From Candidatus Omnitrophota bacterium (GTDB taxonomy: Bacteria; Omnitrophota; Gorgyraeia; Zapsychrales; JANLHA01), in the NCBI GenBank assembly GCA_022711395.1, contig JAKLFA010000002.1:195864-259863 (forward strand): a DNA stretch of 64,000 bases. Direction: 5' to 3'. A program made the translations under genes and the position numbers. This document shows positions 34,192 through 48,964 of this stretch, piece after piece. Position 1 is the stretch's first letter, and every line of letters begins with the position of its first letter. The notes under the pieces are model-generated. The model searched no databases and had not been told where the DNA came from. It saw only the letters and a program-made list of their open reading frames with translations.

Positions 34192-35777
34192 TTCATCCCC
34201 TCTTCATAACAAATTTTCCAAGGCTCGTTAATATCAACCTTGACTATCTCCTGATTTTGAATGTAGACCGCCCTAAAAATAATCCGCATGAACGTCTTGA
34301 CCAGATAGTCCCTCTGCTCGTCCTTCGGATTACTGCGCAGGCGAACCAAGAAATCCTGCGTGGCCTTGACCAGATTAACCGAATTGCGACGCTCAAGCAC
34401 CTTTAACTGGATCGCCTTAACGTCCTGCTTTAACTTTTTCTCCTCGTTACGCAAAAGATCAGCGCGCTCTTTGTAGATATCGGCGTTGATCTTATCCTCC
34501 GAGAAAACCTCATACAGCACCTTCTGCTTCTCGATATTCTTGCCAAGCGCCTTCTCCTTCGCGTCCAGCTCGTCAATAAGATGCTGTTCCGGTTCGGTCG
34601 CGGTCATCTTGATCACGTCACCCAACTCCTCGATCACGTGAAGGTTTTTGCTGATGATATCAATAATATCCCAGACCTGCTTATTGACAGCGTCCGCCGT
34701 CACCGACTTATTACCGCATTTGACGTAAGACACGCCCACAGACGAACAACAATACCACGGCCTGCGCGCTTTCGTGCGATGATTGGCCGTTAGCGTCAAG
34801 CCCCGGTAATTCCGTCCGCAAAGGTTACACTTTAACACGCCGGACAAGTGATACACATTATTCCTGAACCGCACAACAGCATTCGTGCGATTTGTAGCCA
34901 GCCGCTTTTGCGCGGCATCAAACGTCTCTTGCGTGATGATGGACTCATGAGCGTTCGGCACCTCGATGATCTTTGACGGATCATTATGGACGTAACGATA
35001 TCCCTTGCCCTCGCCGTTCCTTGTCTTGGTCTTCATATCGTAATGCTTACGATTCCAGACGAGCGTGCCTAAATAAGTTTTATTGCGCAAAATATCGGAA
35101 ATAAACTTGCCGTAAAATCGTCCGCCCTGTCTTGATGGAATACCCAAGTGATAATAATGCCCGGCTATCTGCGCGGTGCTCTTACCGCCAAGATAGAGCG
35201 TAAAAATATCTTTAACGATCCTCGCCTCATCGGGATTCACTTCAAGCTTCTTGGCTTCTTTATTATAGCGGTAGCCATACGGCGCGTAGCGGGCTCCCTG
35301 CCAGTGGCCTTTCTTGACACCAACAATCATGCCCGGGAAAACACGCTCAACCAGACGATTGCGCTCAAACTCGGCGCAACTGCCGAGCATCTGAATCGCC
35401 ATCTTACCGGCGCTCGACGTTGTATCGAACGGCTCGGTCGCTGACTTATAGCCAATACCGAGTGCCTCAAATTCCTCAAGTAACCCCAACAGATCTTTAA
35501 GCCGACGGCTCAAGCGATCCTGTTTATATACCATGACCAGATCGAATTGCTTATTGCGAGCATCCAGCAATAACCGTTTAAGCGCCGGGCGATCCATATT
35601 CCCGCCGGAATACCCGTCATCCATATAAACGTCTCTGCCCGACATTGTGCAAATAACATCCCAGCCGAAATTCTTCGCATATTGCAAAAGATAATTTCTC
35701 TGCACCTCCAGCGAAAAGCCTTCGCGCGCCTGATCCTCTGTGCTAACTCTTGTGTATAATGCTACCTTCATTGTCAT
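34071..35777 (-). CDS. large serine recombinase (integrase)
   Basis: 568 aa; resolvase catalytic domain VALYTRVSTEDQ (nucleophile Ser), recombinase domain, Cys-rich zinc ribbon (CNLCGRN...CCSSVGVSYVKCGNKS) and coiled-coil C-terminal region. Confidence 0.85.
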   Translation of the reverse strand: MTMKVALYTRVSTEDQAREGFSLEVQRNYLLQYAKNFGWDVICTMSGRDVYMDDGYSGGNMDRPALKRLLLDARNKQFDLVMVYKQDRLSRRLKDLLGLLEEFEALGIGYKSATEPFDTTSSAGKMAIQMLGSCAEFERNRLVERVFPGMIVGVKKGHWQGARYAPYGYRYNKEAKKLEVNPDEARIVKDIFTLYLGGKSTAQIAGHYYHLGIPSRQGGRFYGKFISDILRNKTYLGTLVWNRKHYDMKTKTRNGEGKGYRYVHNDPSKIIEVPNAHESIITQETFDAAQKRLATNRTNAVVRFRNNVYHLSGVLKCNLCGRNYRGLTLTANHRTKARRPWYCCSSVGVSYVKCGNKSVTADAVNKQVWDIIDIISKNLHVIEELGDVIKMTATEPEQHLIDELDAKEKALGKNIEKQKVLYEVFSEDKINADIYKERADLLRNEEKKLKQDVKAIQLKVLERRNSVNLVKATQDFLVRLRSNPKDEQRDYLVKTFMRIIFRAVYIQNQEIVKVDINEPWKICYEEGMKCLKKCETMGKAAIPTEKTKRSYLPVQQENAYFWSPSDVK

Positions 35778-35949
35778 CTTTTAAAGTTGACCGCCATTTT
35801 TTGATCTCGGCGATGCACTCATCTGTAAACACCGGCCAGTTCCTGTAATCCCGCTTTGGCTTAATCCAGCCCTTGCGCACCCAAGCGAGCATGGTCTGCC
35901 GGTGCACGCCCAGTTTTTTTGCCGTCTCTTTCATGTTGTAAGTCTTCAT
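35743..35949 (-). CDS. excisionase/MerR-family HTH DNA-binding protein (Xis/AlpA-like, candidate RDF)
   Basis: 68 aa; MKETAKKLGVHRQTMLAWVRKGWIKP HTH pattern; overlaps the recombinase start. Confidence 0.65.
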   Translation of the reverse strand: MKTYNMKETAKKLGVHRQTMLAWVRKGWIKPKRDYRNWPVFTDECIAEIKKWRSTLKDDNEGSIIHKS

Positions 35950-35996
35950 ATCAGCACCCTCTATGATTGGGCTTTAGTATACCCTGATATACACCA

Positions 35997-36194
35997 TCAT
36001 ACAAGGTTTTTCTTCTCTTCCCCGTACGAGAGAAAAAACATTTTCGATAAGAGCTCAATGCCGGATTCAAAGGATTTTCGAGCGTCCGCTATCTCAAGTG
36101 CAGACAGACCCCGGGCTTTGAGCTTTGCTTCCAAAGCGTCCCAGCCCCGCGGCTCTGCCCTGACTTCGTTTAATATGCTCGATTCCTTTTCCAT
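35997..36194 (-). CDS. hypothetical small protein
   Basis: 65-aa ORF in the element, same strand as neighbours. Confidence 0.3.
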   Translation of the reverse strand: MEKESSILNEVRAEPRGWDALEAKLKARGLSALEIADARKSFESGIELLSKMFFLSYGEEKKNLV

Positions 36195-36235
36195 GTTCTC
36201 TTCCTGCTACGACTGACATACTGACATTCGGCGTG

Positions 36236-36547
36236 TCACTGAATGTCACTCAAATTCCCCTCATTCGTGCCTAAAACGCCCTGTTTTGAAGCGGAATCCG
36301 CCCCATTTGGCGCGTTTTCGCCATCCCACTGACACTGACACGAGTTTTTGAAATTGATATCACTGACAGACTGCGCCTCGGCTGACCCGCGCCAAAGCCC
36401 CTCCAGAAGGACCCACTGCTTAAAAGACGCCGGGGTCACATGCAGACGCGCGGTCACGCTCCGGCCATCGGGTGACGGAAAACGCACATACACCCAGAAG
36501 CCCGGCTTCCATTTCTTCTTCCTGTACTTAAAGCTGTACCATCCCAT
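36236..36547 (-). CDS. hypothetical protein
   Basis: 103-aa ORF with a basic N-terminus (KYRKKKWKPGFW). Confidence 0.3.
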   Translation of the reverse strand: MGWYSFKYRKKKWKPGFWVYVRFPSPDGRSVTARLHVTPASFKQWVLLEGLWRGSAEAQSVSDINFKNSCQCQWDGENAPNGADSASKQGVLGTNEGNLSDIQ

Positions 36548-36651
36548 GATTCACCTCGATTAAGAGATGGCGCGGAGCTGGGCGTGAAACCGCAGGAGGT
36601 TGCGAAAGACGCCCGGTACTTCATCGTTTGAACACTCCGCGCCAAATTGGT

Positions 36652-37290
36652 TCACTTTTTCACCTTGCGATGACGCTCAATCTTCGCCTCGAATTCCTTG
36701 TCCAGATCGAACTCGCGAAAGCGCAGGTGATAACTGTCCTTCTCAATTTCCTTTTCAAAACAAGTCGGATGCGTTAGCGCGCGCTCCGCCCGCTCCTTTT
36801 CAATCATAAAAATATGATTGGTTTGACTGTTAAACCGAAACAGTCTTCCGTCACTCATATAAGTGTCAGCAACGGCTCCGAGAAAAGACTGCGCGAACAC
36901 CAACAACCTCGCGTGCATGCGGGCAAATTCCTCGTCGCAAAACCTTCGTTCCGCGCATATTTCCTGATTCAATCTGTTTGCCTCTGTCTTTAACCCTTCC
37001 TTTTCTTCTTCAAGCGCCATCCGCAATTTATCTTTGAGCTTGTTGATGCTTTCAATGATCGCCTCATGATTAAGCGTGGCGTCTTCCATCCGCGCGTCCG
37101 CTTCTTTGATCTGATTTTCTCCTATCGGCTCTCCGCACAGTTTCTTCTGTCGCAGGCCTTTTGACACCGCGCGGAGCGCCTCTTTTTCTTTTGCCGCTTC
37201 TTCTTGCCTCGCTTCAAGAAGCACAATCTGCTCGGCAACCTCATCCGATGTGCTCTTGCGACTTAACACGTTCAAGAAATTGATCTTCAT
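36652..37290 (-). CDS. hypothetical coiled-coil protein
   Basis: 212 aa, heptad-rich (EARQEEAAKEKEALRAV...); no family recognised. Confidence 0.4.
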   Translation of the reverse strand: MKINFLNVLSRKSTSDEVAEQIVLLEARQEEAAKEKEALRAVSKGLRQKKLCGEPIGENQIKEADARMEDATLNHEAIIESINKLKDKLRMALEEEKEGLKTEANRLNQEICAERRFCDEEFARMHARLLVFAQSFLGAVADTYMSDGRLFRFNSQTNHIFMIEKERAERALTHPTCFEKEIEKDSYHLRFREFDLDKEFEAKIERHRKVKK

Positions 37291-37389
37291 TTTTCGTTCC
37301 TCCTGTTTTGTTAAATGATTTATCTTCTACCCATTGCCCTGCTTTTTTCGTCTACATCGCCTCACCTCCTGTTCCCTGAACGTTGTGAA

Positions 37390-37665
37390 CGTCGACTACC
37401 CTACTTTTTCTAAGCGCTCTTTATGTGCCTCTACGGAGCTTTTTCTCTCTCTTTTTCTTTCTTGGAAAAAGAAAGAAACGACATTCACAACATTCACAAA
37501 CCACATAACCTCTTGTGGATTATGCGGATAATCCGTGACCAGCGTTGTGAACGTAGCCCCTCGACAGTCACAATGGTCACGCCTTTTAATACGGCCTCGT
37601 GTCGTCTTCTTCACAGAATCCAGCCCCTTGTTCACGTTCGTTCACGCCTTCGTTCACACTGTTTT
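37390..37665. repeat. array of GTTCAC-type iterons (P4 ori/crr type-I-iteron-like TGTTCACC) overlapping the 3' end of the primase gene
   Basis: CGTTGTGAACGT occurs twice (37391 and 37543), ATTCACAACATTCACAA once, and TTGTTCACGTTCGTTCACGCCTTCGTTCACA (three GTTCAC in 32 bp at 37630-37662). Confidence 0.5.
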
Positions 37666-39961
37666 CAAAAAGCGAATTACCCTTCACCTTGCGTAAAATA
37701 ACCAGCTTCCTGCCTGTCCCGCCCTCCCGTTTTTCAGGCCGCAAAATATCGATGCCCACACTGCGCATGACCGGAGCGATACGCATAAGTTCTGAACCAA
37801 GCGCTCGGGCATTGCCGGGTATGGTCTTATCAAAACCCGTTTCCGGCTGAATGCACTCAAGAAGCGTGGTCGCTGATCCCTGCCACTCTCCTCCGTTTGA
37901 TTCCACAAGATAAACCAGCCGCTGGGCGAAGGTGCTCTCCTCGGCAGTGTCCTCCCATTTGTGATCAACGGATTGCTGATACCGCTTAAAGAACTCCTCC
38001 CGGGAAAAGCCTAAATACTCAGCCAGTGCCGCGCCCCACTGCGCGAAGTCCGACATCCGGAAACGCTCATGGCCGGACACGCCGTCAATAACCGCCATGG
38101 CATTTGAAATAGCCGAGAAGAATCCGCCGAGAATGCCGGGAAGCGAAGCCCGCCATTCATAAGCGATAACCTTCTCCGGACGGGTTTCTCTTAGGATTGG
38201 GATATCGAAGATAATCGAGCGGTCTAACAAGTCCGGGCGGCAAATAGAACTGCCGATCCCATTAAGAACAAAACACCGGCGATAAGTCCGGATGAACTCC
38301 TCATCATTGGTGTAAAGCGAACGCTTCATATCGCCTTCGCCAGTCACAGCCCGGCAGAGAAAATCGCTGAACCATTCGGACACCCGGGAAAGATTGTCAA
38401 AATTATTCACCCAGTGCTTGTCCGCGATCATCTGTGCCTGCTCCAAATCCTTGGGCACGGAAATGGACATCACCTTGGAAGGATCGCACAGACTTTTAAT
38501 GAGGCGTGAGTTATTAGATTTGCCTGTTCCCTGCTCGCCGATCTGCACCGGTATGACATGAGGAATATCGGGAATAAAGAACGTCGCGATAGCCATCATA
38601 AAAAGACAGGCATCGTTTTTATTGATATTGCAAAACTCCAAGAGCTTTTTGGGGTCAGAACCTTTGACCGGCAAAACCTGCTCTGCCTGATGCGAGTATC
38701 GCTTGAATATCGGCGGCAAGAAAACGACTTCCCAGCCGTCTTTGGTAATAACTATCCCCCGCCAGTCTTGGGTAGTGAGATCATAATAAATAGCCCCGTT
38801 ATGCCAGCCGACACGGTTATAAAGCTCGACCTGTCGCCCACTTTCGCACTTGGCTTCAATCTGGACTTTCGCTTGCTTTAAGGCTTCACTTCCCGGAGGA
38901 TGGCCAAAATCATGACGGTAGCGCATCGCGCAGTAATTCCTGAAACGGGAACTGCTGGTCTGGCAGACTTCAAGATGTTTATCAAACGGCAGAACAATAT
39001 ACGGATTCCCCTGCTGGTCGCGCAGATACTCGCTGATCGTCTCTTCGCAGTCGCGGGTAATGATCTCGCCTTGGGTGAGCTTCTTCTCTTTCGGGAATCC
39101 TGACGCTTCAAACACATTTTTGACATCTTTAACGGCCTTATCAATAACGCTTTGCCCATATGTCCTGCCATCACCGAAATGCTTCTCATCCCACTTTGGC
39201 CGCATGAGCCCGGACTGACGAAAAAGCAAATCCATCAGCCCGTCATCCTTTCCAGTCCAAAAGGCCAGCTTATTGCAAAGTGCCAAGTCAGCTTCTGATT
39301 GAGATGGATATGATTCCTGCCACCTGCCTTCATAAAGGGCGAAGAACGCCTCGCTGTCATTGCTCTTTTTTATCTTGCCAAGTATGCTTCGGACGCTCTT
39401 CTTTTCTTCCTCGGCCTGCTTCAATTCTTCAAACAGCTTCAAGAGCTCGTCTTCTCTTGCTTCGATCGTTCTTTTGCACCCCGGCACGATATCGCCTGTG
39501 ATCGTAAAGAACCTGCCTCCGGAATACATCTCAACACCAAGCTCGCTAAACTTGCGATCGTTGGGAAGCTCGCCTTTACAAAGGATATGAATACCGGTGC
39601 CGCTGGGAGAGAATTCGGTATAACTGTCCAGTACCGATATGATCTTTCGGGCATACGATGCGATAACGCCATTCATCACGCATCCGTCAATATCAATGCC
39701 GACGGTAGGCTTGGTTATTGCAAAGCCGATCGCGTCAAGGCCCAACGCTAAAGACCGGGCGATGACCTCACCAAGCGGCCGCCATGTTTTTGGATCATTG
39801 GACTTGGCATTGCCGCCGGTTGCGACATTGACCGGGACCTTTTTCGCCTTCTTGTCTTTTTGGGGGATGAATTTGAACCCAACGCCTATTGGCGGGCTCA
39901 TGATTTCCTGCGGGATATTCTTCTCTTCCCACCTCTTCACTTTTCTTCTCTCTTCGCTCAT
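37586..39961 (-). CDS. primase-helicase (prim-pol domain plus D5_N plus SF3 helicase; P4 alpha-like)
   Basis: 791 aa; archaeo-eukaryotic prim-pol motifs VGIDIDGC ... SPSGTGIHILCKG and SF3 Walker A GEQGTGKSN. The architecture is typical of phage/plasmid P4-family primases. Confidence 0.8.
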   Translation of the reverse strand: MSEERRKVKRWEEKNIPQEIMSPPIGVGFKFIPQKDKKAKKVPVNVATGGNAKSNDPKTWRPLGEVIARSLALGLDAIGFAITKPTVGIDIDGCVMNGVIASYARKIISVLDSYTEFSPSGTGIHILCKGELPNDRKFSELGVEMYSGGRFFTITGDIVPGCKRTIEAREDELLKLFEELKQAEEEKKSVRSILGKIKKSNDSEAFFALYEGRWQESYPSQSEADLALCNKLAFWTGKDDGLMDLLFRQSGLMRPKWDEKHFGDGRTYGQSVIDKAVKDVKNVFEASGFPKEKKLTQGEIITRDCEETISEYLRDQQGNPYIVLPFDKHLEVCQTSSSRFRNYCAMRYRHDFGHPPGSEALKQAKVQIEAKCESGRQVELYNRVGWHNGAIYYDLTTQDWRGIVITKDGWEVVFLPPIFKRYSHQAEQVLPVKGSDPKKLLEFCNINKNDACLFMMAIATFFIPDIPHVIPVQIGEQGTGKSNNSRLIKSLCDPSKVMSISVPKDLEQAQMIADKHWVNNFDNLSRVSEWFSDFLCRAVTGEGDMKRSLYTNDEEFIRTYRRCFVLNGIGSSICRPDLLDRSIIFDIPILRETRPEKVIAYEWRASLPGILGGFFSAISNAMAVIDGVSGHERFRMSDFAQWGAALAEYLGFSREEFFKRYQQSVDHKWEDTAEESTFAQRLVYLVESNGGEWQGSATTLLECIQPETGFDKTIPGNARALGSELMRIAPVMRSVGIDILRPEKREGGTGRKLVILRKVKGNSLFENSVNEGVNEREQGAGFCEEDDTRPY

Positions 39962-39963
39962 CT

Positions 39964-40194
39964 CTACACTCCGTTTTGAAATAAAAAGTCTTTAACCCTT
40001 CTGTAACACTGAAATAACTGCTCCTCTTGGGAGTTCCTGAAAAACTCATCCGCGAGCCTCTTTGTCTTTTCGCTGTCTTCAAAAAGCACCCGTTTCTGCC
40101 TGCCAAAGCCCGAGATGCCTTTCATGGCCAGCCCTTTTGACACAAGGTAAGCCGCCAGATAAATGTTACCCGCTTCAAAATACTGTTCTTCCAT
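39964..40194 (-). CDS. small phage-type protein (possibly DUF5659-like)
   Basis: 76 aa; YLAAYLVSKGLAMKGI...VLFEDSEKTKRLADEFF pattern reminiscent of small phage proteins; 2-nt gap to the primase. Confidence 0.35.
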   Translation of the reverse strand: MEEQYFEAGNIYLAAYLVSKGLAMKGISGFGRQKRVLFEDSEKTKRLADEFFRNSQEEQLFQCYRRVKDFLFQNGV

Positions 40195-40229
40195 CGTTAA
40201 CCCTCGTTTTCACTTCCCACAGTAGGTAT

Positions 40230-40720
40230 CACCTGTTTGCCTGTGAAATTTCGCATCTTTTTACTGCCCTCATATATGAACACGCAAAAAATTCGAAAGT
40301 GTAACACCCCTAAAGCATATATTCCGGTTTTTCCTGTAAAGTGTCGGATCATTACCCTCCCACAGGTGATTACAGGAAAATTCCGAAAGTGTCGAAGCCT
40401 TCAAGGCGTATATACAACTTTTTTTGCCAAACTGTCCCACCCCTAAGGCGTATATTCCGGATTTTTCCGGAAAGTGTCGGAACTTTCTTTCCCCTCATAG
40501 GTGATTACGCAAAATTTTCAAAAGTGTCGAAGCTTTTGGCCAACTTTTTTGCCCTCCCATAGGTGATTACAGGAAAATTCCGAAAGTGTCGGGGCTCTCT
40601 ACCATAGTTATTACGTTTTTAGGGTCAAAATTTCGCACCCTTACCGTAGTTATATGTATTCCGGGCCAAGATTTCGCACCCCTCAGCTATGAACACGCAC
40701 TATTTTTTAAAGTGTCGAAG
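40230..40720. repeat. dense non-coding iteron array (putative replication origin/operator region)
   Basis: Seven AAAGTGTCG(R) cores embedded in two alternating ~42-bp repeat types (CTAARGCRTATATTCCGGnTTTTyCnGnAAAGTGTCGGA and CCCAYAGGTGATTACrsrAAAwTTyCrAAAGTGTCGrrGC). Also TATGAACACGCA twice and ATTTCGCACCC three times. No ORF. Confidence 0.6.
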
Positions 40721-40721
40721 C

Positions 40722-40781
40722 CCAAAAATAAAAAAGCCACTTCCGGCCAATTGACTGGAAATGGCTTTTCCCGCACAGGCG
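40722..40781 (-). terminator. strong rho-independent terminator (minus strand)
   Basis: Minus-strand RNA AAAAGCCAUUUCC-loop-GGAAGUGGCUUUU (13-bp stem, one G-U) followed by UUUUUUAUUUUU. Confidence 0.65.
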
Positions 40782-40818
40782 GAACAGTGATCAGCTGTCC
40801 CGTAAGTCTATTTTTATT

Positions 40819-41030
40819 TTATAACAGCGCCAATCTTTCTCAAGATGGTCGTTACCAAAATATGGAATAAATCGCGCTTACGATTCCATCATATGACAAC
40901 GCCAATCTTTCTCAAGGGGGTCATTACTACAAAATAGCAAATCGCCCTCTCACGCTTTCATCATATAACAGCGCGAATCTTTCTCAAGGGGGTCTTTACT
41001 ACAGAATAGTAATAATTATTTGGGGTGTTT
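40819..41030. repeat. three tandem 72-bp direct repeats, non-coding
   Basis: Period of exactly 72 nt (AATCT anchors at 40832, 40904, 40976); unit is about TATRACArCGCsAATCTTTCTCAAGrkGGTCdTTACyACArAATAGnAA.... It lies between the PD-(D/E)xK gene stop and the terminator. Confidence 0.6.
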
Positions 41031-41142
41031 TGGAGGGCTAAAAACAAAAAATCGCCCAGGAGAGCGACAAATGAACTATTAAGTATTACTTACAAGTTGA
41101 ACTATTAGGAATTACCGAATAGTTCCCACATTCTCATCTATC

Positions 41143-42399
41143 CTATGCCTTTATTACCAGATCGATAAATGGCTTCAAAGATAAAAAGGCCTGTTCGAAT
41201 AGGTCAATGGCTTTAGGCGTATGAATCACTTTTGATTCCTGATATGGGATTTCGATGCCGATCTCAAACTGAATGTTTGACTTTTTGCCGGTCATTACCG
41301 TATATGTGGTCTCCAGCCATTCTGGTTGATATTTTTGAGATTTGCTATACCCATCGCGAATGACAGTGCGCAAATCATAACGCAACACAGCATCTTCGAT
41401 AGGAGGACTGCTTTGGCTGGGATAGTGCCGCTGGAGTACTTTCGCATAAGGCTGAACAGCTGGATCAATATGTATAACCTTATCGACTTCTCGTGCTATT
41501 GAAAATATCAATTCATTAAAAGAATCCTGCCCTTGTCCAAAAACTAATTTTCTGATTGATCGTTTAACTGCATTTGGCAAAGTAATCAGCGCAACTGCTT
41601 TATCAGCATGAATCACTACGGTTAAATGTGGATACTTCGTAAAATTTTGTGCATCCTTTGAAACCTTGAGCCGCATAAAATCCCATACGCTCCAGCCTCT
41701 ATACGCTTTTATTGCCCCTCGGCCGGGCAATGCGGGGTCAACCCCCAATTTATGGATGCTTTGTTTGCTTTTCAATTCATCCATGAGAAGCCCCAAAACT
41801 CTCTTGGCTTCCAGATAATTAAATTGATAATCCTTGCTAAACGGAATGCCAGCAAAGCGAGTTAGCGTTCCTTCTTTAAGATAAGCCTTTTGAACCATTT
41901 TTGCCTCCGCAACTTCCATATACGTCAAAATCTGCTTAGCCCAGTCAGAATGCGCAGACTGAACTGTTAGCCATTCATAGAGCCGATTCCATGGCAATCC
42001 CACGACATTTGTAGGCAAGCTCTTTAAATTATCTTCCGTAGCAAGCACCAATAACGTGCTATCAGGGAATCCGCGCCGACTTGCAATCTTAAGATGCCTA
42101 TCAAGCTGATGTAAATCAACCCGTGAAGCGACTTTGCTTTCAATCAGCAATGCCCATCCATCATCTGTAAAGATCCATGCATCTGGTAAACCGCGGTCGC
42201 CAACTTCAGCTTCATCTAACTCTATATCGCCCGGCAAAGTCTGCTCAACAATGTGCACTCTTGACGCCTTGCCGAGTCGCTTGCCAGTAACCCAAAGAAT
42301 AAACGCTTTTAGTAAACGTTGATCCTTGGTCAGACCAGAAACAAGTGCGTGAGTGAGCCGATTTTCTGGCTGTGAATATTGATCAAATATATGCCTCAT
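41143..42399 (-). CDS. PD-(D/E)xK nuclease-fold protein with unknown C-terminal domain (candidate defence effector)
   Basis: 418 aa; the N-terminal roughly 130 aa carry E...PDAWIFTDDGWALLIESKV (PD ... ExK); the remainder has no recognisable motif. Last gene of the hsdR-hsdMS operon. Confidence 0.55.
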   Translation of the reverse strand: MRHIFDQYSQPENRLTHALVSGLTKDQRLLKAFILWVTGKRLGKASRVHIVEQTLPGDIELDEAEVGDRGLPDAWIFTDDGWALLIESKVASRVDLHQLDRHLKIASRRGFPDSTLLVLATEDNLKSLPTNVVGLPWNRLYEWLTVQSAHSDWAKQILTYMEVAEAKMVQKAYLKEGTLTRFAGIPFSKDYQFNYLEAKRVLGLLMDELKSKQSIHKLGVDPALPGRGAIKAYRGWSVWDFMRLKVSKDAQNFTKYPHLTVVIHADKAVALITLPNAVKRSIRKLVFGQGQDSFNELIFSIAREVDKVIHIDPAVQPYAKVLQRHYPSQSSPPIEDAVLRYDLRTVIRDGYSKSQKYQPEWLETTYTVMTGKKSNIQFEIGIEIPYQESKVIHTPKAIDLFEQAFLSLKPFIDLVIKA

Positions 42400-42411
42400 T
42401 TGGAACCTGAT

Positions 42412-43125
42412 TTATTCTGTTTCTGCGACGTATGCTTCGTTGTATTTTTCTGCGATCTTGCGCAACAATCTTTTCTTTCCTTTTGCCTTCCCAAGGAATG
42501 ACTCAAAATCAAAAGCTGAACATGCTTTCAGATCTTGTTTCGAAAAATAATTCTTTCTCAATAGACAATCTTCAAAATGCTGATAGTCATAATCCTCTTC
42601 TTGCAATGCTCTCTCAAAAATAGACAACAATACAGTCGACATTCGTTGCTGAATTTCTTCGATATATGACAAGATTTCGTTAATTTTATCGTCGATCTGT
42701 TCTTGCGAATTCAAGTAGACATTACCATTAACGTGAGCACTATCATTGCGAAGCTTGATAATCTCTTTGTATTTGCCGATCCTATCCTGCAATCCGATGA
42801 GCCTTAAAAAACGAATGAATTGAGATTCACCAATAACCCAAAAGCCAAATGGATCGGACACTTTGGTCAGATCGGACTCATGTCGATCAATACAACCAAT
42901 CAAGCACTTTGAGAAATCTTCGTGCCGAACTGTTTTAATCTTCCAAACACAAAAATACGTAAAAAGCATAAACAGCATGTGATACGCAATGAACGCGAAC
43001 TGATATTTTCCGTTTTCATAATTACATTTAAATGAATCCCATAAAAAAAGAAGGTATTCTTGCTCTTTCTCGCTCCGAAAATAGCTTGGCAAATATTCTA
43101 AGATATGTTGGGCGTCATCGATCAC
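42412..43125 (-). CDS. HEPN-like (Rx4H) / DUF4145-like protein, candidate abortive-infection component
   Basis: 237 aa; KLRNDSAHVNG contains an R-x4-H motif as in HEPN/DUF4145 proteins often linked to Type I RM loci. Hydrophobic stretch FAFIAYHMLFMLFTYFCVW; start overlaps the hsdMS stop (ATGA). Confidence 0.5.
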   Translation of the reverse strand: MIDDAQHILEYLPSYFRSEKEQEYLLFLWDSFKCNYENGKYQFAFIAYHMLFMLFTYFCVWKIKTVRHEDFSKCLIGCIDRHESDLTKVSDPFGFWVIGESQFIRFLRLIGLQDRIGKYKEIIKLRNDSAHVNGNVYLNSQEQIDDKINEILSYIEEIQQRMSTVLLSIFERALQEEDYDYQHFEDCLLRKNYFSKQDLKACSAFDFESFLGKAKGKKRLLRKIAEKYNEAYVAETE

Positions 43126-45623
43126 TTTTCACCCCAAATCTTAGAAATACGCTCACAAATTTTTGTTGAATATATGTCTATAATTCTTCGATTCGAATTA
43201 ACAAGCTGTTCCGTTTCATCTAAAAAAGTCACTACTTTTTTTTGCGTATCAATATCGGGAAGTAAAAACTTTAGCTTATAAGCGTCATTACGATTGAGAC
43301 CAGGTACACCAGCTTGAGTATTAACCTTATCGAGCCGCATTGATAGCATTTGATAATAAGCGAATTTCAGATCTAAAGAATCTATCTTGTTGATTTTGAC
43401 ATAAAAAGTGGTATCAATTGGGTATCCTGATTTTTCTGAGTATGTAACAGCACCCGCTGTTCCTTTTCTCCCCACTACAACAAAAGGCCCATCCACTAAA
43501 TATTCATTATGCCAGCCGACTATGCCATTAGACCCAAAAACGGGATATTCACCAGCGATTCTATTTTCCTCTTTAAGTGGCTTCCCGTATTCCAAAGACA
43601 GAACATCTCCTAATTCTACAACTGGCCATTCGGGATCAGAGTCAATACGCGGATTATAATTATCAGTAACCTGACGAGCCCCCGCAACAATCTTTTGATA
43701 ACTACTTAATTCTTCAACTATTTCTTCCTGTACAGTCATCGACGGGAGTGGGATTTTGATTTCTTTGACCTCTAGGCTAATACCTCCGATAATTCCTTTA
43801 ATATACGGCTTCAATTTTTGTTGGAAATCATCCGACCTGATGATTGCATAAAGATATTCCGGAAGGATATTCTGCCGAGCCCTTAATATAAAAACATGTT
43901 CATTTACAGCGGCGGCTTCGTTGCAGTCAAAATATCCAGTCTTTCCAGTTGTTGCGCCATCTTTGACAATTAGAACATCTCCTTTTTTTAGAATACCTTT
44001 CTTCATCGATTGGAAATGTTCATTAGTGACATATTTCATTTTTTCAAACAGGATATCACCATGTTCATTTATCTGCTCGCCCCCGATGCTCGGAATGCCC
44101 GACGAAACCGCGCCTCCTTTTTGTCGTGATCCGCTTTCTATATCAACAACATCTCCTAATTCAACCATCGGCCACTTAACGTTAACATGAGTTTCCTTTA
44201 ACCCATATCGTTCGCCACTCAAGTTGTATGTGCCGCCTTTTGCGATCTTGCTTTTTTCAATTACCTTTATTTTTTGCCATGCGTCATCTTTAAATTTGCC
44301 TTCTGAAATAACGGCCTTCTTGTATTCCATGATTGCGCGATATGCATCCGGCAAGTCATTTTCTTGTATCGGACGCCTCTGCGCGCCAAGATCAAAGCCA
44401 TCGTTTTCGATCTTCACGAATAAAAGATTATCCGTTTTCTTAACAAGCTGTTTGTCGAGCCACAATATGGACGTCTTAACGCCAGAGTATGGATTAAAAA
44501 GTCCAGCTGGAAGAGAGATAACTCCAACCAGATACTCTTCAACAAGCATTTTTCTAAGCTGCCTATAGGCTGTATCGTTTTGAAATATTATTCCTTCTGG
44601 AACAATGATTGCGGCACGCCCCATTGAAGTAAGATGCTCAGCCATATAATCCACAAAAAGCACCTCTGAGCGCTTGGATTGGACAGAAAAACGCTTATGT
44701 GGTTTTATCCCACCTTTAGGCGACATGAATGGAGGGTTTGCGAGAATGACCTCTGCTTTTTCATCCCATTTGTCGTCTCGCGTTAATGTGTCATACTCAT
44801 AAATTTTTGGGTTGCTAAAACCATGGAGATACATATTCACCAAAGACAATCTAACCATATCCGGAGAAATGTCATATCCTGAAATATTATCAACAAGCCG
44901 TTTGCGATCGTCAGAGGTTAATTTTTCCCCACGGTATCCTTTGCCATTAATCGTGATCTCCGAAAGCTTGATATTTTGAAGCTCAAATGGCTTTGGATCA
45001 TTCTTAGGATCATAGTTCTTCGAGTTATGCTTAATAATATATTTGTATGCGGATATCAAAAACCCGCCCGTTCCGCATGCTGGATCCAATATCTTTTCGT
45101 TCTTTTTGGGCTCCAGAATCTCTACCATAAAATCAATGATATTTCGCGGCGTTCTGAATTGCCCGGCCTCGCCTTGACTTCCTAATATCGAAAGCAAATA
45201 TTCAAAAGCATCGCCAAGACGCTCAGAGTGATCGTATTCAAACTCATTAATTTCTTTTAGAAAACTTTTAAGCGTTTCTGGGTCCCGATATGGCAAATAC
45301 GCGTTCTTAAAGATATCCCTAAATAACTGCGGGACATTGGGGTTTTGATTCATATTCTGTATTGCTTCGCCATACAGATTTACAATGTCATAGCCGCTTT
45401 TTTGAGGTGAAAAAACGTTACGCCACGAATAATCTTTAAATTTATCGGTAAAGAATTTTGCCTTACCGCGAGGCAATAGCTCTGCCTGCCTGTCCATGTC
45501 ATCCATAAACTTATAAATTAGGGCAATTGTAATTTGCTCAACTTGAGATTTAGGATCAGGCAATTTACCGACTAAAATGTCTCGCGCAGTATTTATTCGC
45601 CTTTTTGTAATGTCATCTAGCAT
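43122..45623 (-). CDS. hsdMS: Type I restriction-modification HsdM-HsdS fusion (N6-adenine methyltransferase plus two target-recognition domains)
   Basis: 833 aa; methylase motif I LDPACGTGGFL and motif IV NPPF; C-terminal half has two TRD-like repeats (WPMVELGDVVDIESG... and WPVVELGDVLSLEYG...). Confidence 0.8.
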   Translation of the reverse strand: MLDDITKRRINTARDILVGKLPDPKSQVEQITIALIYKFMDDMDRQAELLPRGKAKFFTDKFKDYSWRNVFSPQKSGYDIVNLYGEAIQNMNQNPNVPQLFRDIFKNAYLPYRDPETLKSFLKEINEFEYDHSERLGDAFEYLLSILGSQGEAGQFRTPRNIIDFMVEILEPKKNEKILDPACGTGGFLISAYKYIIKHNSKNYDPKNDPKPFELQNIKLSEITINGKGYRGEKLTSDDRKRLVDNISGYDISPDMVRLSLVNMYLHGFSNPKIYEYDTLTRDDKWDEKAEVILANPPFMSPKGGIKPHKRFSVQSKRSEVLFVDYMAEHLTSMGRAAIIVPEGIIFQNDTAYRQLRKMLVEEYLVGVISLPAGLFNPYSGVKTSILWLDKQLVKKTDNLLFVKIENDGFDLGAQRRPIQENDLPDAYRAIMEYKKAVISEGKFKDDAWQKIKVIEKSKIAKGGTYNLSGERYGLKETHVNVKWPMVELGDVVDIESGSRQKGGAVSSGIPSIGGEQINEHGDILFEKMKYVTNEHFQSMKKGILKKGDVLIVKDGATTGKTGYFDCNEAAAVNEHVFILRARQNILPEYLYAIIRSDDFQQKLKPYIKGIIGGISLEVKEIKIPLPSMTVQEEIVEELSSYQKIVAGARQVTDNYNPRIDSDPEWPVVELGDVLSLEYGKPLKEENRIAGEYPVFGSNGIVGWHNEYLVDGPFVVVGRKGTAGAVTYSEKSGYPIDTTFYVKINKIDSLDLKFAYYQMLSMRLDKVNTQAGVPGLNRNDAYKLKFLLPDIDTQKKVVTFLDETEQLVNSNRRIIDIYSTKICERISKIWGEK

Positions 45624-45637
45624 GATAATCCCCTCTT

Positions 45638-48160
45638 TTAAATAAACGTGTTTAATGGCACGTAATCTTTGACGTATTCAATAACCGGATCCATCCACCC
45701 GTCTAAATCATGCAAATCTTGCATGTTAAAACGCGGATTCGTGGCAAGTGAACTGAATTCACCTGTCTCCATTATCTGCTGGATTTCCTTATCCAAAATA
45801 TATGCCTTCATGAAATGCCCGATAATTGATACAAACTCCGGCTCCGGGTGATATATGGAAATAAATTTCTGAACTTCTTCTTCAAGGAGCTCGTCTTTAG
45901 TCTTAAATTTTTTGATTTTGCCAAAAATCTTTTCAAGGATTTCTTTCAGGCTCAATCTGCGGTCGAGTTTGATAGATTTTCTCAGTTTATCCAGATTGAA
46001 ATAATCCTCGGGCTTATCAAAAACTTTGTCTTTGATATACGCCTCGGCTTCTTCGTACTTTCCCTCATAAATCTTATTCTTAATGTGCTCATCATGGCTT
46101 ACGATTTCCTCGAACTTCTCGAAGAACTTTCTGTCAATTCGCATCCCTTCATAGCCTATGGGCGTCTCATCGATCCCAACAAGCGGATCAGGATTCACGT
46201 TTTCATACTCTCTCGGATTGGGTGGCGGAAAAGGCCCGGGCCCCGTAGTTCCGGGAGTTGTGGGCGGTAACGCAATAACCTCGTCATAGGGATATTTTTC
46301 TTCAAAATATTCACAGTTCGCAAAGAAATCAAACAGCTTAAATCGCTCTTTTTCTTTTTGAACTTCGTCTATGCCCCCGATACCATCTGGCTGTTTATAA
46401 GAAAACGTGTATTTTCGGGTTCCTCGACCTTTCATTTGAATAAAATCGGTGGGCGAGAAAATAGGGCGCATTAAACACAAATTGAGGATATCTTGACAAT
46501 CATATCCTGTGGTCATCATTCCAACCGTTACACACACCCGCGTCTTTGATGAATTATACCCATCCAAGAATTTCGAATTACCGCTAAGGCGGTTATTGGC
46601 GAAATTGATGGCCATTTGTTGAGAACCATCGATATTTGATGTAACCTGTACCGCAAAATCAGAGTTATATTTTTCGGGGAAATATTTATGTGCAAGCTCA
46701 TTTAAAATTTGCGTAATCTTTGAAGCGTGATTTTGGCTTACACAGAAACAAATCGATTTTCCTATTTCATTTGTAAGGGGATCCTTGAGAGCATTGTCCA
46801 AGAATGTCTTACACAGGGACAAATTTGTTTCTTCCGAAAACAGCCTTCGTTCGAAATCTTTTCCGAAAAAGATCTTCTTTTCAGACTCCCCGTCCTCGTT
46901 CTCTATTAATACAGCGTACCCTTCTTCAGAAAGCAACTGGGTTGTAATTTCTGTTCTTGCATCAACCACGATGGGATTGATTAAGTACCCGTCTTTCACT
47001 CCATCTAAAAGGGTATAACGAAAAGTGGGATCGGTATCTTTACATCCGAAAGTCGTATACGTATCTAAGAGCTGGCGCCTTTCCAGCGCCCTTGGGTCAT
47101 GGTGCGCCAGCTGTTGCTCATCAACGTTTCGCAAATAGTTTTTCGGTGTTGCCGTTAATCCTAATTTATAGCCCGTAAAATATTCGAAAACTGCCCGGCT
47201 ATTCCCACCTATTGACCTATGAGCCTCATCAGATATGACAAGATCAAAGTCTGTTGGGCAAAATAAATCCTTGTATTTATTTTTAAATAACAATGACTGA
47301 ACCGTCGAAACTACAATCTCCGCTTTTGTCCAATCATCCTTGTTCTCTTTAAAAATGACACATTTAAAGTCTTTCTTGAGGTAGGCTACAAAATTCTTCC
47401 ATGCTTGATCTTCCAGCTCGAGGCGATCAACCAAAAACAACACCCTTTTTGCGTTACTTGTTCTTAAAAACAACTTAATCACGGCCGCCGAAACAAGCGT
47501 TTTTCCTGTCCCAGTAGCCATCTCAAATAAAAATCTGTCTTTCCCTTGAGAAACCGCTTCTTGTATCGAATGTATAGCCTTTAACTGGTACTTTCTCAAA
47601 AAACGAAGACCGTTATCTTCAACAAAAGATTTTCTTTGGCTGGGATCGACCCACCGTGGATCTTTTGAATAATTCTGGTTTTGAGTTAAAACTATATAAT
47701 CCTCATCAATCTGTTCTCGAACGATTGCGTCGGGATTAGGCTTAAAAGATTTCTTATGCGTTATAGAGGCCGCTGTAGGGAATGTTGTTATAACATACGG
47801 ATTGCCCGATTCTATGTCCCAGAAGTAATGAAGATTTCCATTTGAAAGAATAATAAAACGAACATTTAAAGAATTGGCATACTGCCGAGCTTGCTCTTTA
47901 CCATCCAAAGGATTTTTGCTTTCACTCTTAGCTTCAAGCACACAAAGAGGAAAAGAATTTTTATCCATCAAAAGATAATCAGCGTACCCTTTGCTGGCTT
48001 TTTCAAAGTCCTCCCCCAGCTCATTAATGGCGATTTCCGTGATTGGCGTATTTACCTCCAGCCGAATGTTTGCTTTACCATTCTGATCGTCAAAAAAACG
48101 CCAACCGGAATCTTCTAGTAACTTATTGATCTTGATTCGTGCTTTAGCTTCTTTCGCCAT
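45638..48160 (-). CDS. hsdR: Type I restriction enzyme R subunit (HsdR family, short EcoEI-like form)
   Basis: 840 aa; N-terminal PD-(D/E)xK nuclease (D...CVLEAKSE), SF2 helicase motif I MATGTGKT and motif II ISDEAH, C-terminal helical domain. Confidence 0.8.
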   Translation of the reverse strand: MAKEAKARIKINKLLEDSGWRFFDDQNGKANIRLEVNTPITEIAINELGEDFEKASKGYADYLLMDKNSFPLCVLEAKSESKNPLDGKEQARQYANSLNVRFIILSNGNLHYFWDIESGNPYVITTFPTAASITHKKSFKPNPDAIVREQIDEDYIVLTQNQNYSKDPRWVDPSQRKSFVEDNGLRFLRKYQLKAIHSIQEAVSQGKDRFLFEMATGTGKTLVSAAVIKLFLRTSNAKRVLFLVDRLELEDQAWKNFVAYLKKDFKCVIFKENKDDWTKAEIVVSTVQSLLFKNKYKDLFCPTDFDLVISDEAHRSIGGNSRAVFEYFTGYKLGLTATPKNYLRNVDEQQLAHHDPRALERRQLLDTYTTFGCKDTDPTFRYTLLDGVKDGYLINPIVVDARTEITTQLLSEEGYAVLIENEDGESEKKIFFGKDFERRLFSEETNLSLCKTFLDNALKDPLTNEIGKSICFCVSQNHASKITQILNELAHKYFPEKYNSDFAVQVTSNIDGSQQMAINFANNRLSGNSKFLDGYNSSKTRVCVTVGMMTTGYDCQDILNLCLMRPIFSPTDFIQMKGRGTRKYTFSYKQPDGIGGIDEVQKEKERFKLFDFFANCEYFEEKYPYDEVIALPPTTPGTTGPGPFPPPNPREYENVNPDPLVGIDETPIGYEGMRIDRKFFEKFEEIVSHDEHIKNKIYEGKYEEAEAYIKDKVFDKPEDYFNLDKLRKSIKLDRRLSLKEILEKIFGKIKKFKTKDELLEEEVQKFISIYHPEPEFVSIIGHFMKAYILDKEIQQIMETGEFSSLATNPRFNMQDLHDLDGWMDPVIEYVKDYVPLNTFI

Positions 48161-48177: not shown

Positions 48178-48885
48178 TTATTTGTTTAAAATCCCTATGT
48201 AATCCTCAAAACTATAATAATTACTGCCGCCAACTATTATGTGATCCAGTAGCCTTACTTGCATGGTCTTGCCAGCTTCGAACAATTGTTTTGTGAAGTC
48301 CTTATCAGGTGTGCTTGGTGTTGTGTCGCCAGATGGATGGTTATGAACGCAGACAATCGACTTGGCGAATTTCTGTAATGCGGCATGAATGATCTCCCGG
48401 ACAATCGGGAACGCCTGATCAACAGTACCGACCGAAGCGTCTGAAATATCAATGATGCGGTTCTTGTTATCAAGATAAATAACCTTGAACACCTCTGTTT
48501 TAAGGTCGCGGAGCTGGGGCAAAACAATATCCACAACGTCCTTGGCAGAGGCGATCTTCTGCTTCCCGGTGGACACATCGTCCTGTCGATAGCGCCGCCC
48601 GATTTCAAGCGCGGCCTGAATATGGGCGATCTTGGCCCCGCCCAAACCCTTGAATTCCTTCCAGTCGCGGGCGTCGGTGTGGGCCATACTCCTGAATGAA
48701 CCGAACTTTGCGAGGATCTTGCGGGAAAGGTCGATGGCGCTTGTGCCTTTGGAGCCAGTGCGAAGCAGAATGGCTAGAAGCTCTGAATTACTCAAAGCTC
48801 CCGCGCCCTTCTTGAGGAGTTTCTCTCTCGGCCTGTCATCCTCCGGCCAAGTCTTTATGCCTGTAGCTTTTCTTTCCTTCACCAT
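48178..48885 (-). CDS. radC: RadC-like JAB-domain protein
   Basis: 235 aa; LSNSELLAILLRTG HhH N-terminus and JAMM-like HNHPSGDTTPSTPD motif. Confidence 0.8.
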   Translation of the reverse strand: MVKERKATGIKTWPEDDRPREKLLKKGAGALSNSELLAILLRTGSKGTSAIDLSRKILAKFGSFRSMAHTDARDWKEFKGLGGAKIAHIQAALEIGRRYRQDDVSTGKQKIASAKDVVDIVLPQLRDLKTEVFKVIYLDNKNRIIDISDASVGTVDQAFPIVREIIHAALQKFAKSIVCVHNHPSGDTTPSTPDKDFTKQLFEAGKTMQVRLLDHIIVGGSNYYSFEDYIGILNK

Positions 48886-48912
48886 TCTTCTCTTCTCTGT
48901 TCTTCACTATTT

Positions 48913-48964
48913 CTGCAACCAGTGGTTGCAGATTTTGAGCCAATTCTTGCACCAATGGTGCAAG
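48913..48964. promoter_or_regulatory. pair of 8-3-8 inverted repeats upstream of radC (candidate operator); a third exact copy at 50152-50172
   Basis: CTGCAACC-agt-GGTTGCAG (48913-48931) and CTTGCACC-aat-GGTGCAAG (48946-48964). The 21-mer TTCTTGCACCAATGGTGCAAG recurs exactly inside the DUF1016 CDS. Confidence 0.45.

Follow-up and report, generated by a model that had tools for sequence, protein, structure and literature searches.

The analysed window, a stretch of 64,000 nt of Candidatus Omnitrophota DNA, contains an array of 72-bp direct repeats on the minus strand. It lies at the boundary between variable genes of the defence type and a set of origin and replication genes. The upstream cargo (41143..48160, minus strand; assigned by Pfam, PADLOC and homologue names) encodes HsdR (840 aa), an HsdM-HsdS fusion (833 aa), a 237-aa protein with a weak HEPN match and a 418-aa protein. 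Homologues of the latter are named PD-(D/E)XK nuclease; the protein itself gave no Pfam or PADLOC match. On the other side of the array follow a small RNA with a strong terminator, an iteron-like array which is a putative replication origin (40250..40720; repeat families D1, D3, D5, D6 and D8) and co-directional core genes (34071..40194, minus strand; Pfam, PHROGs and ORF list). These start with DUF5659 (40194-39964) and a primase-polymerase of the NrS-1 type (39961-37586) and end with a serine integrase (35777-34071). Between primase-polymerase and integrase lie a 212-aa gene, a 103-aa ORF containing a cos-like site, a 65-aa gene and a 68-aa excisionase-like HTH gene, all on the minus strand.

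According to the original prediction, the repeats lie between the stop of the 418-aa gene and the strong terminator and are likely transcribed as the tail of the defence operon. However, they do not adjoin this gene: a 26-bp tandem/inverted repeat (41072-41125) is located between the stop codon of this gene (41143) and the array, as is a terminator-like hairpin with a T-run (41040..41068, minus strand; hairpin at 41051-41068; terminator scan, -9.7 kcal/mol, z = -2.2) that would close the cargo operon. Moreover, the upstream cargo differs in every related locus, and six other genomic contexts of 418-aa homologues contained no units, repeats, box or RNA. Judged by these contexts, the repeat-RNA unit does not include the cargo. 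The region was also thought to be without coding potential, and this nearly holds, except that one plus-strand ORF of 94 aa with a GTG start (40586-40870) clips the last unit.

Three tandem copies of a promoter-like unit

Tandem Repeats Finder reported the array at 40820-41009 with a period of 72, 2.7 copies, 81% matches and a score of 232, and a repeat search of the window placed the starts of three copies at 40812, 40884 and 40956, with a spacing of exactly 72 and 72 nt. What is exact is the period alone; the copies are no more than 70-81% alike, with 70-75% identity to the reference copy. With a profile search, three full 72-nt units were delimited on the minus strand, and homologous units were detected in 53 other loci, far beyond chance. 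A search of other genomes for the repeat had been proposed and was in this respect successful, but none of the units lay at the six other contexts of 418-aa homologues.

Unit C (40945..41016), farthest from the RNA and unit 1/3 of the profile search, consists of the box ATTATTACTATTCTGTAGTAAAGACC, a -35 element TTGAGA (40987-40982) and a -10 element TATGAT (40965-40960), the two hexamers being separated by a 16-nt spacer. Unit B (40873..40944) has the box GATTTGCTATTTTGTAGTAATGACC followed by TTGAGA (40915-40910) and TATGAT (40893-40888). In unit A (40801..40872), which adjoins the RNA, the box TTTATTCCATATTTTGGTAACGACC precedes TTGAGA (40843-40838) and TAAAAT (40821-40816). All three sites scored 10/12 in the promoter scan, at the exact 72-nt spacing.

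As the pattern of a sigma-70-type promoter we took hexamers 16-18 nt apart whose positions are conserved among homologues while the spacer is free. The units show this pattern, and the phage copies described below match it as well. When 40 distinct units were aligned, the TTG of the -35 element, the TAnnAT of the -10 element and the distance between them were kept, whereas the spacer sequence was free to vary. The most conserved part of the unit is not formed by the hexamers, but by the box GTAAYGACC, which ends 3 nt before the -35 element. In the window, GTAAYGACCNNNTTG occurs in the three units only, plus one match with one mismatch at 29161 (0.41 expected by chance), and in 51 loci it is restricted to the module. 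Neither in the window nor in these 51 loci was the box ever found without promoter and RNA. On this pattern of conservation, each 72-bp repeat is a copy of one predicted promoter unit; the three stand in tandem, run in the same direction and point into the small RNA. From the -10 position of unit A we infer a transcription start near 40809.

While the promoter cores stay alike, the boxes have diverged between the units. In comparisons over 29 nt, the window boxes are 59-76% identical to one another and 79-86% identical to boxes of different phage lineages: the unit C box has its nearest phage counterparts in loci L058 and L046 (79%), the unit B box is 86% identical to those of L050 and L051, and the unit A box is 86% identical to that of L068. 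The three-copy array is shared with one other locus, L008, at 96% identity, and unit B is likewise 96% identical to its counterpart there.

The original prediction had offered, as a fallback, a protein-binding array that belongs to the neighbouring origin. It is true that the units accompany the origin and replication module, but they appear to be promoter copies rather than iterons. They are unrelated in sequence to the iteron families at 40250-40720, and the related loci L002, L005 and L022 have iterons without units, so that the units are not Rep-binding iterons.

A short structured RNA closed by a strong terminator

The three units are followed by a small RNA or leader, here called type A (40722..40815, minus strand; fold and covariance model), with a predicted transcript of about 85 nt from about 40809 to 40725. 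It comprises a short 5′ tail, stem-loop 1 (~40802-40780) with the loop CUGAUCA, a linker and the terminator hairpin (40769-40732), which is followed by a U-run as far as ~40722. A folding energy of -36 kcal/mol (z = -4.5) was calculated for the 91-nt stretch, and the phage versions of the RNA reach -45 to -47 kcal/mol (z = -6.2). Hence the strong terminator that had been noticed in this region is confirmed. A structured non-coding RNA closed by it also exists, but this RNA is encoded downstream of the repeats and does not consist of them. Folding of single units, which had been suggested as a check, gave a different fold for each of the three (z = -3.7, +0.2 and -1.6).

The structure is conserved among homologues. 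The covariance model scored 101.5 bits at 40730-40815, and across 37 distinct RNA homologues 99.4% of the pair cells were paired, compared to 42-61% when the partners were slid. For the 16-pair helix of the terminator this value was 99.7%. Changes from UA to CG were seen in 15 sequences, changes from U-A to U-G are numerous, the lower stem of stem-loop 1 has GC, AU, GU and UG variants, and the G-U and compensatory changes fit the minus strand only. Covariation is modest, with two pairs changed on both sides. In nine type-A loci that were found independently by protein search, the loop and the upper stem of stem-loop 1 do not vary. That ACAGCTGATCACTGT is invariant in the viral and metagenome matches is partly a product of the search pattern. 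With a G+C-rich hairpin, a U-run and pairing kept across homologues, the 3′ end has the features of an intrinsic terminator, at which transcription probably ends.

No match to Rfam 15 was obtained at the gathering threshold for the whole window, and only chance-level matches were obtained at E values up to 10 over 40150-41150. The small RNA and its dedicated promoter box would therefore constitute a new RNA motif with at least 37 distinct sequences, absent from Rfam and common to integrated elements and lambda-like phages of Omnitrophota. To our knowledge, this is a phylum with almost no experimental genetics.

There are two types of the RNA, A and B, which are exchanged between otherwise similar elements; L008 has the type that the window lacks. 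When viral contigs were searched for type B, the exact terminator pattern gave no match, and what a degenerate pattern matched, in G+C-rich contigs, was at chance level. Therefore no phage counterpart is known for type B.

We also looked for targets of the type-A RNA. An 18-nt complementarity between RNA positions 40791-40774 and the DUF5659 leader (40245-40228) was discarded, since this leader is also present in L008, whose RNA is of the other type, and different leaders are found in type-A loci. When each locus was searched for complementary 10-mers, one recurrent site was returned, located in the primase-polymerase gene, which reflects the coding motif YSGQW; this site is present in type-B loci too and absent from the window. 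Plain duplex folding gave loose, uninformative pairings only. Thus no conserved complementary target of the RNA was found in the elements.

Occurrence in integrative elements and lambda-like phages

The combination of box, promoter and type-A RNA was found in 50 other loci. About half of these are related integrative elements, mostly in Omnitrophota genomes, with different cargo and one, two or three promoter copies; the remaining loci are lambda-like phage contigs with one copy. Overall, one copy is present in 39 loci, two in 13 and three in 2, and the variation from one to three is confined to integrated elements. In 12 of 35 related genome loci the units and the RNA lie upstream of iterons and primase-polymerase, each time with different upstream genes. 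In the window, too, the RNA terminator is immediately followed by the iteron-like array and this in turn by DUF5659 and the primase-polymerase, and homologous arrays with the motif GACACTTT precede the primase-polymerase in related loci. Based on this distribution, the box-promoter-RNA-terminator unit is a conserved core component, and not cargo, of an apparent integrative-element family found mainly in Omnitrophota. What looked like the repeat RNA of a defence operon would accordingly be annotated as the regulatory front end of a mobile element. The unit is missing from the relatives L002, L005 and L022, in which iterons and primase-polymerase are the same, and is therefore not essential for replication of the element family. 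A BLAST search of 40200-41150 against cultured phages and plasmids returned two short chance matches only.

In about 20 viral and metagenome loci the unit is located between genes for TerL and an 84-aa Zn-ribbon ORF on one side and the gpW and portal genes on the other. These phages are lambda-like with a terminase of the gpA type, and they have a single copy of the unit directly upstream of gpW and portal. The distance from the U-run to the gpW start is ~20-30 nt and contains no other promoter-like site; in the two phage loci examined, the site in the unit was the sole promoter-like match around the module. As there is no room for another promoter, expression of gpW and portal from this position would be possible only if transcription passes the terminator. 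Neither the window nor the islands contain the Zn-ribbon gene. Its product carries, besides the Zn-ribbon, an AT-hook-like GRP motif, and it gave only sub-threshold matches to generic zinc ribbons and no solved relative. An assignment to Ogr/Delta was rejected, since five of the phage proteins reached E = 0.003-1.5 and 9-18 bits against PF04606 (Ogr_Delta), the cut-off of which is 26.3 bits. An assignment to Q was rejected as well, with the generic sub-threshold matches and no Q-family protein detected. No antiterminator or activator was identified by these searches.

A second segment is shared with phages. The putative cos site (36327..36414, minus strand) has a consensus of CGGGTCCTT, GGGTCGGGCGAGGCG, CAGTGAT and ATGTCAT in that order. 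This segment of ~85 nt is of the non-coding type and 78-80% identical to phage intergenic DNA, where the match lies upstream of genes for a ParB-methylase, TerS and TerL. It is kept in ~30 island loci, some of them without the RNA module, and BLAST against cultured phages gave no match. The segment may function as a cos site.

The gene set of the element, with serine integrase, excisionase-like HTH, primase-polymerase and iterons, is of the satellite type, and no structural-gene matches were found between 34 and 52 kb. Two shared cis elements, together with a core of integrase, primase-polymerase and origin and with variable defence cargo, suggest a phage-satellite family that has gone unrecognised. 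We know of no defence-carrying phage satellites in Omnitrophota. The cargo region might then be a defence hotspot comparable to those of P4 (PMC9122126). Satellites of the cos type that carry the cos site of their helper include P4, SaPIbov5 and PICIs of the EcCICFT073 type (PMC5052747, PMC10111431). Like these, the element in the window is integrated and has an integrase, primase and replication genes, an origin and no structural genes, and a short non-coding segment is common to it and a phage of the cos type (gpA terminase), where this segment lies upstream of packaging genes. It differs in that a serine integrase and an NrS-1-like primase-polymerase are used, in that cos function and packaging are putative, and in being new in sequence and host.

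A possible regulatory gate and alternative explanations

The anatomy of the module, which includes the repeats, their promoter-type conservation, the RNA structure, the core membership and the sharing with phages, is well supported. As to its role, we favour a gate of promoter, leader and terminator of the phage type that is placed upstream of the replication and excision genes of a satellite and has its promoter triplicated, a reading to which we give about an even chance. By default the unit would yield a short terminated transcript. A phage-encoded factor acting on the box or the stem-loop would boost transcription or allow the terminator to be read through. In the phage, opening of the gate would turn on the head genes, whereas in the integrated element it would lead to transcription across the origin and switch on the replication and excision genes. 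The element would in this way respond to infection by a helper. The occurrence of the unit in lambda-like phages suggests that the element senses its helper phage through such a switch, and three promoter copies with three box variants may give more output or broaden the range of helpers sensed. If so, a satellite can copy and multiply a late regulatory cassette of its helper to time its own induction. One observation bears on the read-through step: the promoter scan found a separate promoter-like site inside the iteron region (40628-40601), and the replication genes may thus not depend on read-through.

The closest parallel is the late promoter PR' of lambdoid phages, which is controlled by Q antitermination and from which a short transcript is made that ends at a terminator (6S RNA; in Stx phages, StxS) (PMC7547250). 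The phage loci fit the order of a PR'/tR' cassette, with a promoter, a short structured RNA ending at an intrinsic terminator and, directly behind it, late genes that would depend on read-through. Further similarities are the small phage gene directly before the promoter and a short RNA by-product able to act in trans. On the other hand, no Q-family protein was detected and the upstream gene encodes the unclassified 84-aa Zn-ribbon protein; the phage unit lies between terminase and gpW/portal and not before lysis genes; and an extra copy, with its promoter triplicated, is found before the origin of a separate integrated element.

In the late promoters dependent on P2 Ogr and P4 delta, the satellite P4 and its helper P2 activate each other. 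The element resembles this system as a putative satellite whose promoters are of the late type of the helper and have a conserved element ahead of the -35 hexamer, and in having a small zinc-binding phage protein as candidate activator. It differs in the Zn-ribbon protein, which stays under the Ogr_Delta threshold, in the host phylum, and in the promoter, which drives a terminated RNA before replication genes and not capsid-size genes. The site bound by P2 Ogr is near -55 (PMC3152322). At this position, TTATTAC-N6-GTAGTAA was matched at 6/7 positions in 16 of 40 distinct units and was absent from the others; conservation of this inverted repeat does not extend to all units.

A more specific version of the gate model appears doubtful to us. 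Each box variant would be matched to a different lineage of lambda-like Omnitrophota phages and recognised by the regulator of that lineage, for which the Zn-ribbon/AT-hook protein always encoded beside the phage unit would be the candidate. Any of three helpers could then open the gate, after which the satellite would be packaged through the shared cos-like site. If this were true, the element would represent a new family of defence-carrying satellites in which helper range is widened by modular cis-regulatory elements.

Among the alternatives, a free-standing gene for a trans-acting small RNA fares best, and we consider it possible, although clearly the less likely reading. Its tandem promoters would raise the dose and the downstream genes would not be gated; the RNA could, for example, confer immunity or incompatibility like P4 CI, or act as a mimic that interferes with the helper's own copy. 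A promoter, a short structured RNA and a strong terminator are the classic layout of a small-RNA gene, and the invariant loop and upper stem in the nine type-A loci would fit an RNA that acts in trans. The exchange of types A and B between similar elements is as expected of a specificity determinant, and the replication genes may have their own promoter. However, the search of the elements yielded no conserved complementary target: the best candidate, in the DUF5659 leader, also occurs in L008 with the other RNA type, and the primase-polymerase match is a coding motif that type-B loci have too. In addition, the phage RNA ends 20-30 nt before essential head genes, which is a better fit to a leader. 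P4 itself has the CI RNA and an immunity leader with seqA and seqC upstream of the operon of its alpha primase (PMC10111431). Common to both are a small RNA that lies in the leader of a satellite primase operon and is oriented like it, and an early termination that would keep the replication genes off, but no complementary target like seqA or seqC was detected downstream here, there is no sequence or Rfam similarity, and the RNA is shared with phages.

It is improbable that the array acts at the DNA level as a set of protein-binding sites, be it an operator, a centromere or decoy sites, with the likeness to promoters being secondary. In favour of this, the box is more conserved than the hexamers, the copies vary from one to three in integrated elements only, each box in the window resembles that of another phage lineage, and the phage protein encoded beside the unit has a Zn-ribbon and the GRP motif. 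Against it, conservation extends to the -35 and -10 positions but not to the spacers, the box was always accompanied by promoter and RNA, most elements have a single copy, and the units are unrelated to the iterons.

Slightly less probable still, in our view, is a neutral tandem duplication of the promoter region that arose through recombination where cargo and core meet, the extra copies having no selected function. The array does lie exactly at the junction where cargo is exchanged, and most relatives manage with one copy. Moreover, the promoters of L020 and L027 are split by insertions, so the site tolerates disruption. Yet all three units in the window keep 10/12 hexamers at 16-nt spacing, the three-copy array is kept at 96% in L008 despite the different RNA type, and two-copy arrays recur in 13 loci, with boxes that have diverged and cores that are alike.

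In Type III toxin-antitoxin loci, the toxin gene is preceded by nearly identical tandem repeats, all of which form one and the same antitoxin fold. By analogy with these (ToxIN, AbiQ/antiQ), the repeats had been proposed to be the 3′ tail of the operon, processed to 72-nt units that neutralise the adjacent nuclease. The likeness is limited to short tandem direct repeats by a terminator near a putative nuclease, namely the 418-aa protein with its PD-(D/E)XK homologues, and to the weakly HEPN-like 237-aa protein, neither of which matched ToxN or AbiQ in Pfam and PADLOC. We regard this explanation as highly improbable, since a terminator-like hairpin separates operon and repeats, the array is downstream and not upstream of the genes, the diverged, promoter-like units have no shared fold and are mostly single in relatives, the six 418-aa contexts elsewhere are without them, and in all relatives the units stand beside unrelated cargo.

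Position and anatomy of the repeat array

The 72-bp repeats belong to an integrated mobile element that lies at roughly 34-52 kb of the window, in a region of lower G+C and inverted GC skew. Read on the minus strand, its cargo (41143-48160) comprises a Type I restriction-modification system (HsdR and an HsdM-HsdS fusion), a 237-aa protein with a weak HEPN match and a 418-aa protein that falls in no Pfam family, and is closed by the operon terminator. The latter, a terminator-like hairpin and T-run at 41068-41040 (minus strand, -9.7 kcal/mol), lies just past the 418-aa gene and upstream of the repeats. The core follows, with three 72-bp units, an RNA of about 85 nt, an iteron-like array, a DUF5659 gene and an NrS-1-like primase-polymerase gene. 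Past these lie a 212-aa gene, a 103-aa ORF, a 65-aa gene, an excisionase-like HTH gene and a serine integrase gene abutting a MiaB-like gene. The dense iteron-like array (40250-40720) contains several repeat families of 34-58 nt with GACACTTT-type cores and is placed directly between the RNA terminator and the DUF5659/primase-polymerase genes. Homologous arrays are present in related loci, and we consider it the probable replication origin.

Tandem Repeats Finder reported the 72-bp array at 40820-41009 (period 72, 2.7 copies, 81% matches), and a profile made from the copies located three full units on the minus strand, C (40945-41016), B (40873-40944) and A (40801-40872). The exact period that had originally been predicted was recovered, with start-to-start distances of 72 and 72, but in the repeat search the copies were only 70-75% identical to the reference copy. 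Each unit carries a sigma-70-type promoter-like site on the minus strand with a score of 10 of 12: TTGAGA, 16 nt and TATGAT in units C (40987-40960) and B (40915-40888), and TTGAGA, 16 nt and TAAAAT in unit A (40843-40816). Among 40 distinct units from the window and its relatives, GTAACGACC at 3 nt upstream of the -35 element, the TTG of the -35 and the TAnnAT of the -10 were invariant. The variants of the -35 (TTGAGA, TTGTCA, TTGAAA, TTGCAA) and of the -10 (TATGAT, TAAAAT, TAAGAT, TAATAT) all remained consensus-like, and the spacer sequence was free. The combination of box and TTG was found nowhere else in the 64-kb window, except for one match with one mismatch at 29161, nor elsewhere in the fetched loci, and is therefore specific to the promoter of the RNA and not a general host feature. 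The 72-bp units are predicted to be promoter copies of this RNA. When folded as RNA, the three units gave unrelated structures (z = -3.7, +0.2 and -1.6), unlike the repeated structured RNA that had been proposed.

In two related elements, L020 and L027, the promoter is split between box/-35 and -10 by an insertion, a 48-nt perfect palindromic hairpin (L020 5197-5245) and a stretch of about 135 nt with internal hairpins (L027 5020-5154), respectively. Both look like small mobile insertions.

The predicted terminated RNA downstream of the units

Directly after the three units lies the RNA of about 85 nt, a hairpin RNA with its own terminator. The strong terminator of the original prediction was confirmed: its hairpin occupies 40732-40769 on the minus strand, and the U-run after it reaches about 40722. 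For the 91-nt stretch 40812-40722 the predicted folding energy is -36 kcal/mol (z = -4.5). In a model-based alignment of 37 sequences, which had been fitted to the covariance-type model used, standard pairs made up 99.4% of pair cells compared to 42-61% when the partners were slid by 1-3 columns. Covariation was modest: one terminator pair is U-A in 16 sequences and C-G in 15, seven pairs change on a single side via G-U, and in the lower part of stem-loop 1 GC, AU, GU and UG pairs all occur. Since G-U pairs are valid on one strand only, the RNA strand is the minus strand of the window. The invariance of ACAGCTGATCACTGT among pattern-derived matches is an ascertainment effect. No Rfam family matched the RNA, a previously undescribed motif from an unexplored host phylum.

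The RNA occurs in two types of the same architecture but different sequence. The window has type A, and type B is found in L008, L029, L030 and L031, where the type-A model gives just 20-25 bits. Type B has a short form of 89 nt (L029 2094-2182) and a long form of about 145 nt (L008 5129-5272, L031 5149-5293) in which about 55 nt of structured sequence are inserted into the first-stem loop.

Relatives in integrated elements and phages

A genome scan with the primase-polymerase yielded 35 related loci, about two thirds titled Candidatus Omnitrophota or Omnitrophica and most others MAGs labelled Planctomycetia. In 12 of the 35, the DNA upstream of the iterons matches the units and RNA of the window, whereas L002, L005 and L022 have iterons with neither unit nor RNA, and L001 and L004 show a different arrangement. 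Most elements carry one unit, 13 loci have two, and three are found in the window and L008. The last unit and type-A RNA of L028 (222 nt) are 95% alike those of the window, while the primase-polymerase N-terminus is just 53% identical; L008 has the first two units of the window at 96% identity, yet a type-B RNA. The original prediction saw the repeats as the tail of the defence operon and expected them beside homologous genes in other genomes. Homologous units do exist, but their upstream neighbours are different cargo in every related locus, and in the window the terminator-like hairpin separates them from the 418-aa gene. As the upstream genes vary from locus to locus, the units and RNA are part of the conserved core, bordering variable cargo.

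A pattern search with the type-A RNA identified 12 viral and 30 metagenome contigs. Together, pattern matches, genome loci and the window gave 51 modules with 37 distinct RNAs, in two contexts: elements with iterons downstream and phage contigs without iterons. All phage loci have one unit. Upstream of it are a large terminase gene (with gpA ATPase and nuclease domains, and <42% identity to any from cultured phages) and an overlapping ORF of about 84 aa; downstream follow genes for a gpW-like head-tail joining protein and a lambda-family portal protein. The gpW start lies just 20-30 nt past the U-run, and the module promoter is the sole promoter-like site in about 740 nt around the module, from which we infer that the phage head genes would have to be reached by terminator read-through. 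The 84-aa ORF encodes a GRP (AT-hook-like) motif and a Zn-ribbon with four cysteines. Every phage locus has it, always immediately upstream of the promoter-RNA unit and overlapping the terminase gene end (for instance L037 9614-9868 and L039 7517-7801), whereas neither the window nor the elements do. Its product matched no family above threshold and no solved relative. The three 29-nt boxes of the window are 59-76% identical among themselves, but 79-86% identical to phage boxes, each to that of a different lineage, whereas the -35 to -10 cores are nearly equal. This may mean that the array brings together boxes of differing specificity.

In phage versions of the RNA (L037 9966-10026, L040 2911-2968), CCCAAUAG, which precedes the terminator hairpin, base-pairs with UAUUGGG just past the U-run, a clamp that lengthens the hairpin in read-through transcripts and is missing from integrated elements.

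Proposed function and further features of the element

The array is real but had been misassigned: it is a regulatory cassette of satellite or phage type that includes a leader RNA. We regard the anatomical reading, promoter copies followed by one terminated RNA, as very probable; a helper-responsive gate is a possible function that falls somewhat short of probable. In lambdoid late control, a promoter yields a short terminated RNA until a phage factor permits read-through (PR', tR', StxS; PMC7547250), and the likeness lies in a promoter and short terminated RNA gating the genes beyond the terminator. The unit may be a gate of this kind. Lying ahead of the origin and the genes for replication and excision, it would tie their expression to infection by a helper; three promoter copies would give higher output or a wider helper range. 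Activation of the Ogr/delta kind (PMC3152322) would be an alternative mode. Less probable readings are a purely trans-acting small RNA, for which no target was found, a DNA-binding or decoy array, and a neutral duplication. The Type III toxin-antitoxin reading, with the repeat RNA as antitoxin, was contradicted in every defining feature tested.

A second phage-shared segment, of about 85 nt, lies inside the 103-aa ORF (36236-36547) at 36414-36327 on the minus strand, with about 80% identity to phage intergenic DNA and the layout CGGGTCCTT, GGGTCGGGCGAGGCG, CAGTGAT, ATGTCAT. In lambda-like phage contigs it lies upstream of the ParB-methylase, TerS and TerL genes, with a small hydrophobic ORF on its other side. 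It matched nothing in cultured phages. About 30 element loci retain it, among them loci with no RNA module. Because of its position, and by analogy with PICI cos sites, which were inferred in a comparable manner (PMC10111431, PMC5052747), we propose it as a candidate cos site. In that case, the elements would count as cos-type satellites, with gpA-terminase phages as their helpers.

Throughout the element family, the DNA upstream of the promoter array acts as a hotspot for cargo. The 418-aa protein family has >1000 homologues, some named PD-(D/E)XK nuclease. A comparison of the window with L090 and L091 revealed a similar set elsewhere (HsdR, HsdM, HsdS, a 232-aa gene, an FRG-domain gene and a 421-aa gene), which suggests an accessory module that recurs with Type I systems. 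The stretch from the restriction system to the far end of the element (48178-51790) contains additional accessory genes, for a RadC-like JAB protein, a YhcG/PDC-S02 PD-(D/E)XK protein and a HARE-HTH protein that weakly matches PD-(D/E)XK, together with a 151-aa and a 90-aa ORF. At the other end of the element, the serine integrase gene shares its 3' part (34071-34191) with the longest ORF of the MiaB-like radical-SAM gene (32788-34191), which suggests that the element integrated at or within the 5' end of the MiaB-like gene. Repeat searches also found, between the 418-aa stop and its terminator-like hairpin (41072-41125), two 26-bp units, TGAACTATTAAGTATTACTTACAAGT and TGAACTATTAGGAATTACCGAATAGT, that form both a direct (tandem) and an inverted repeat.
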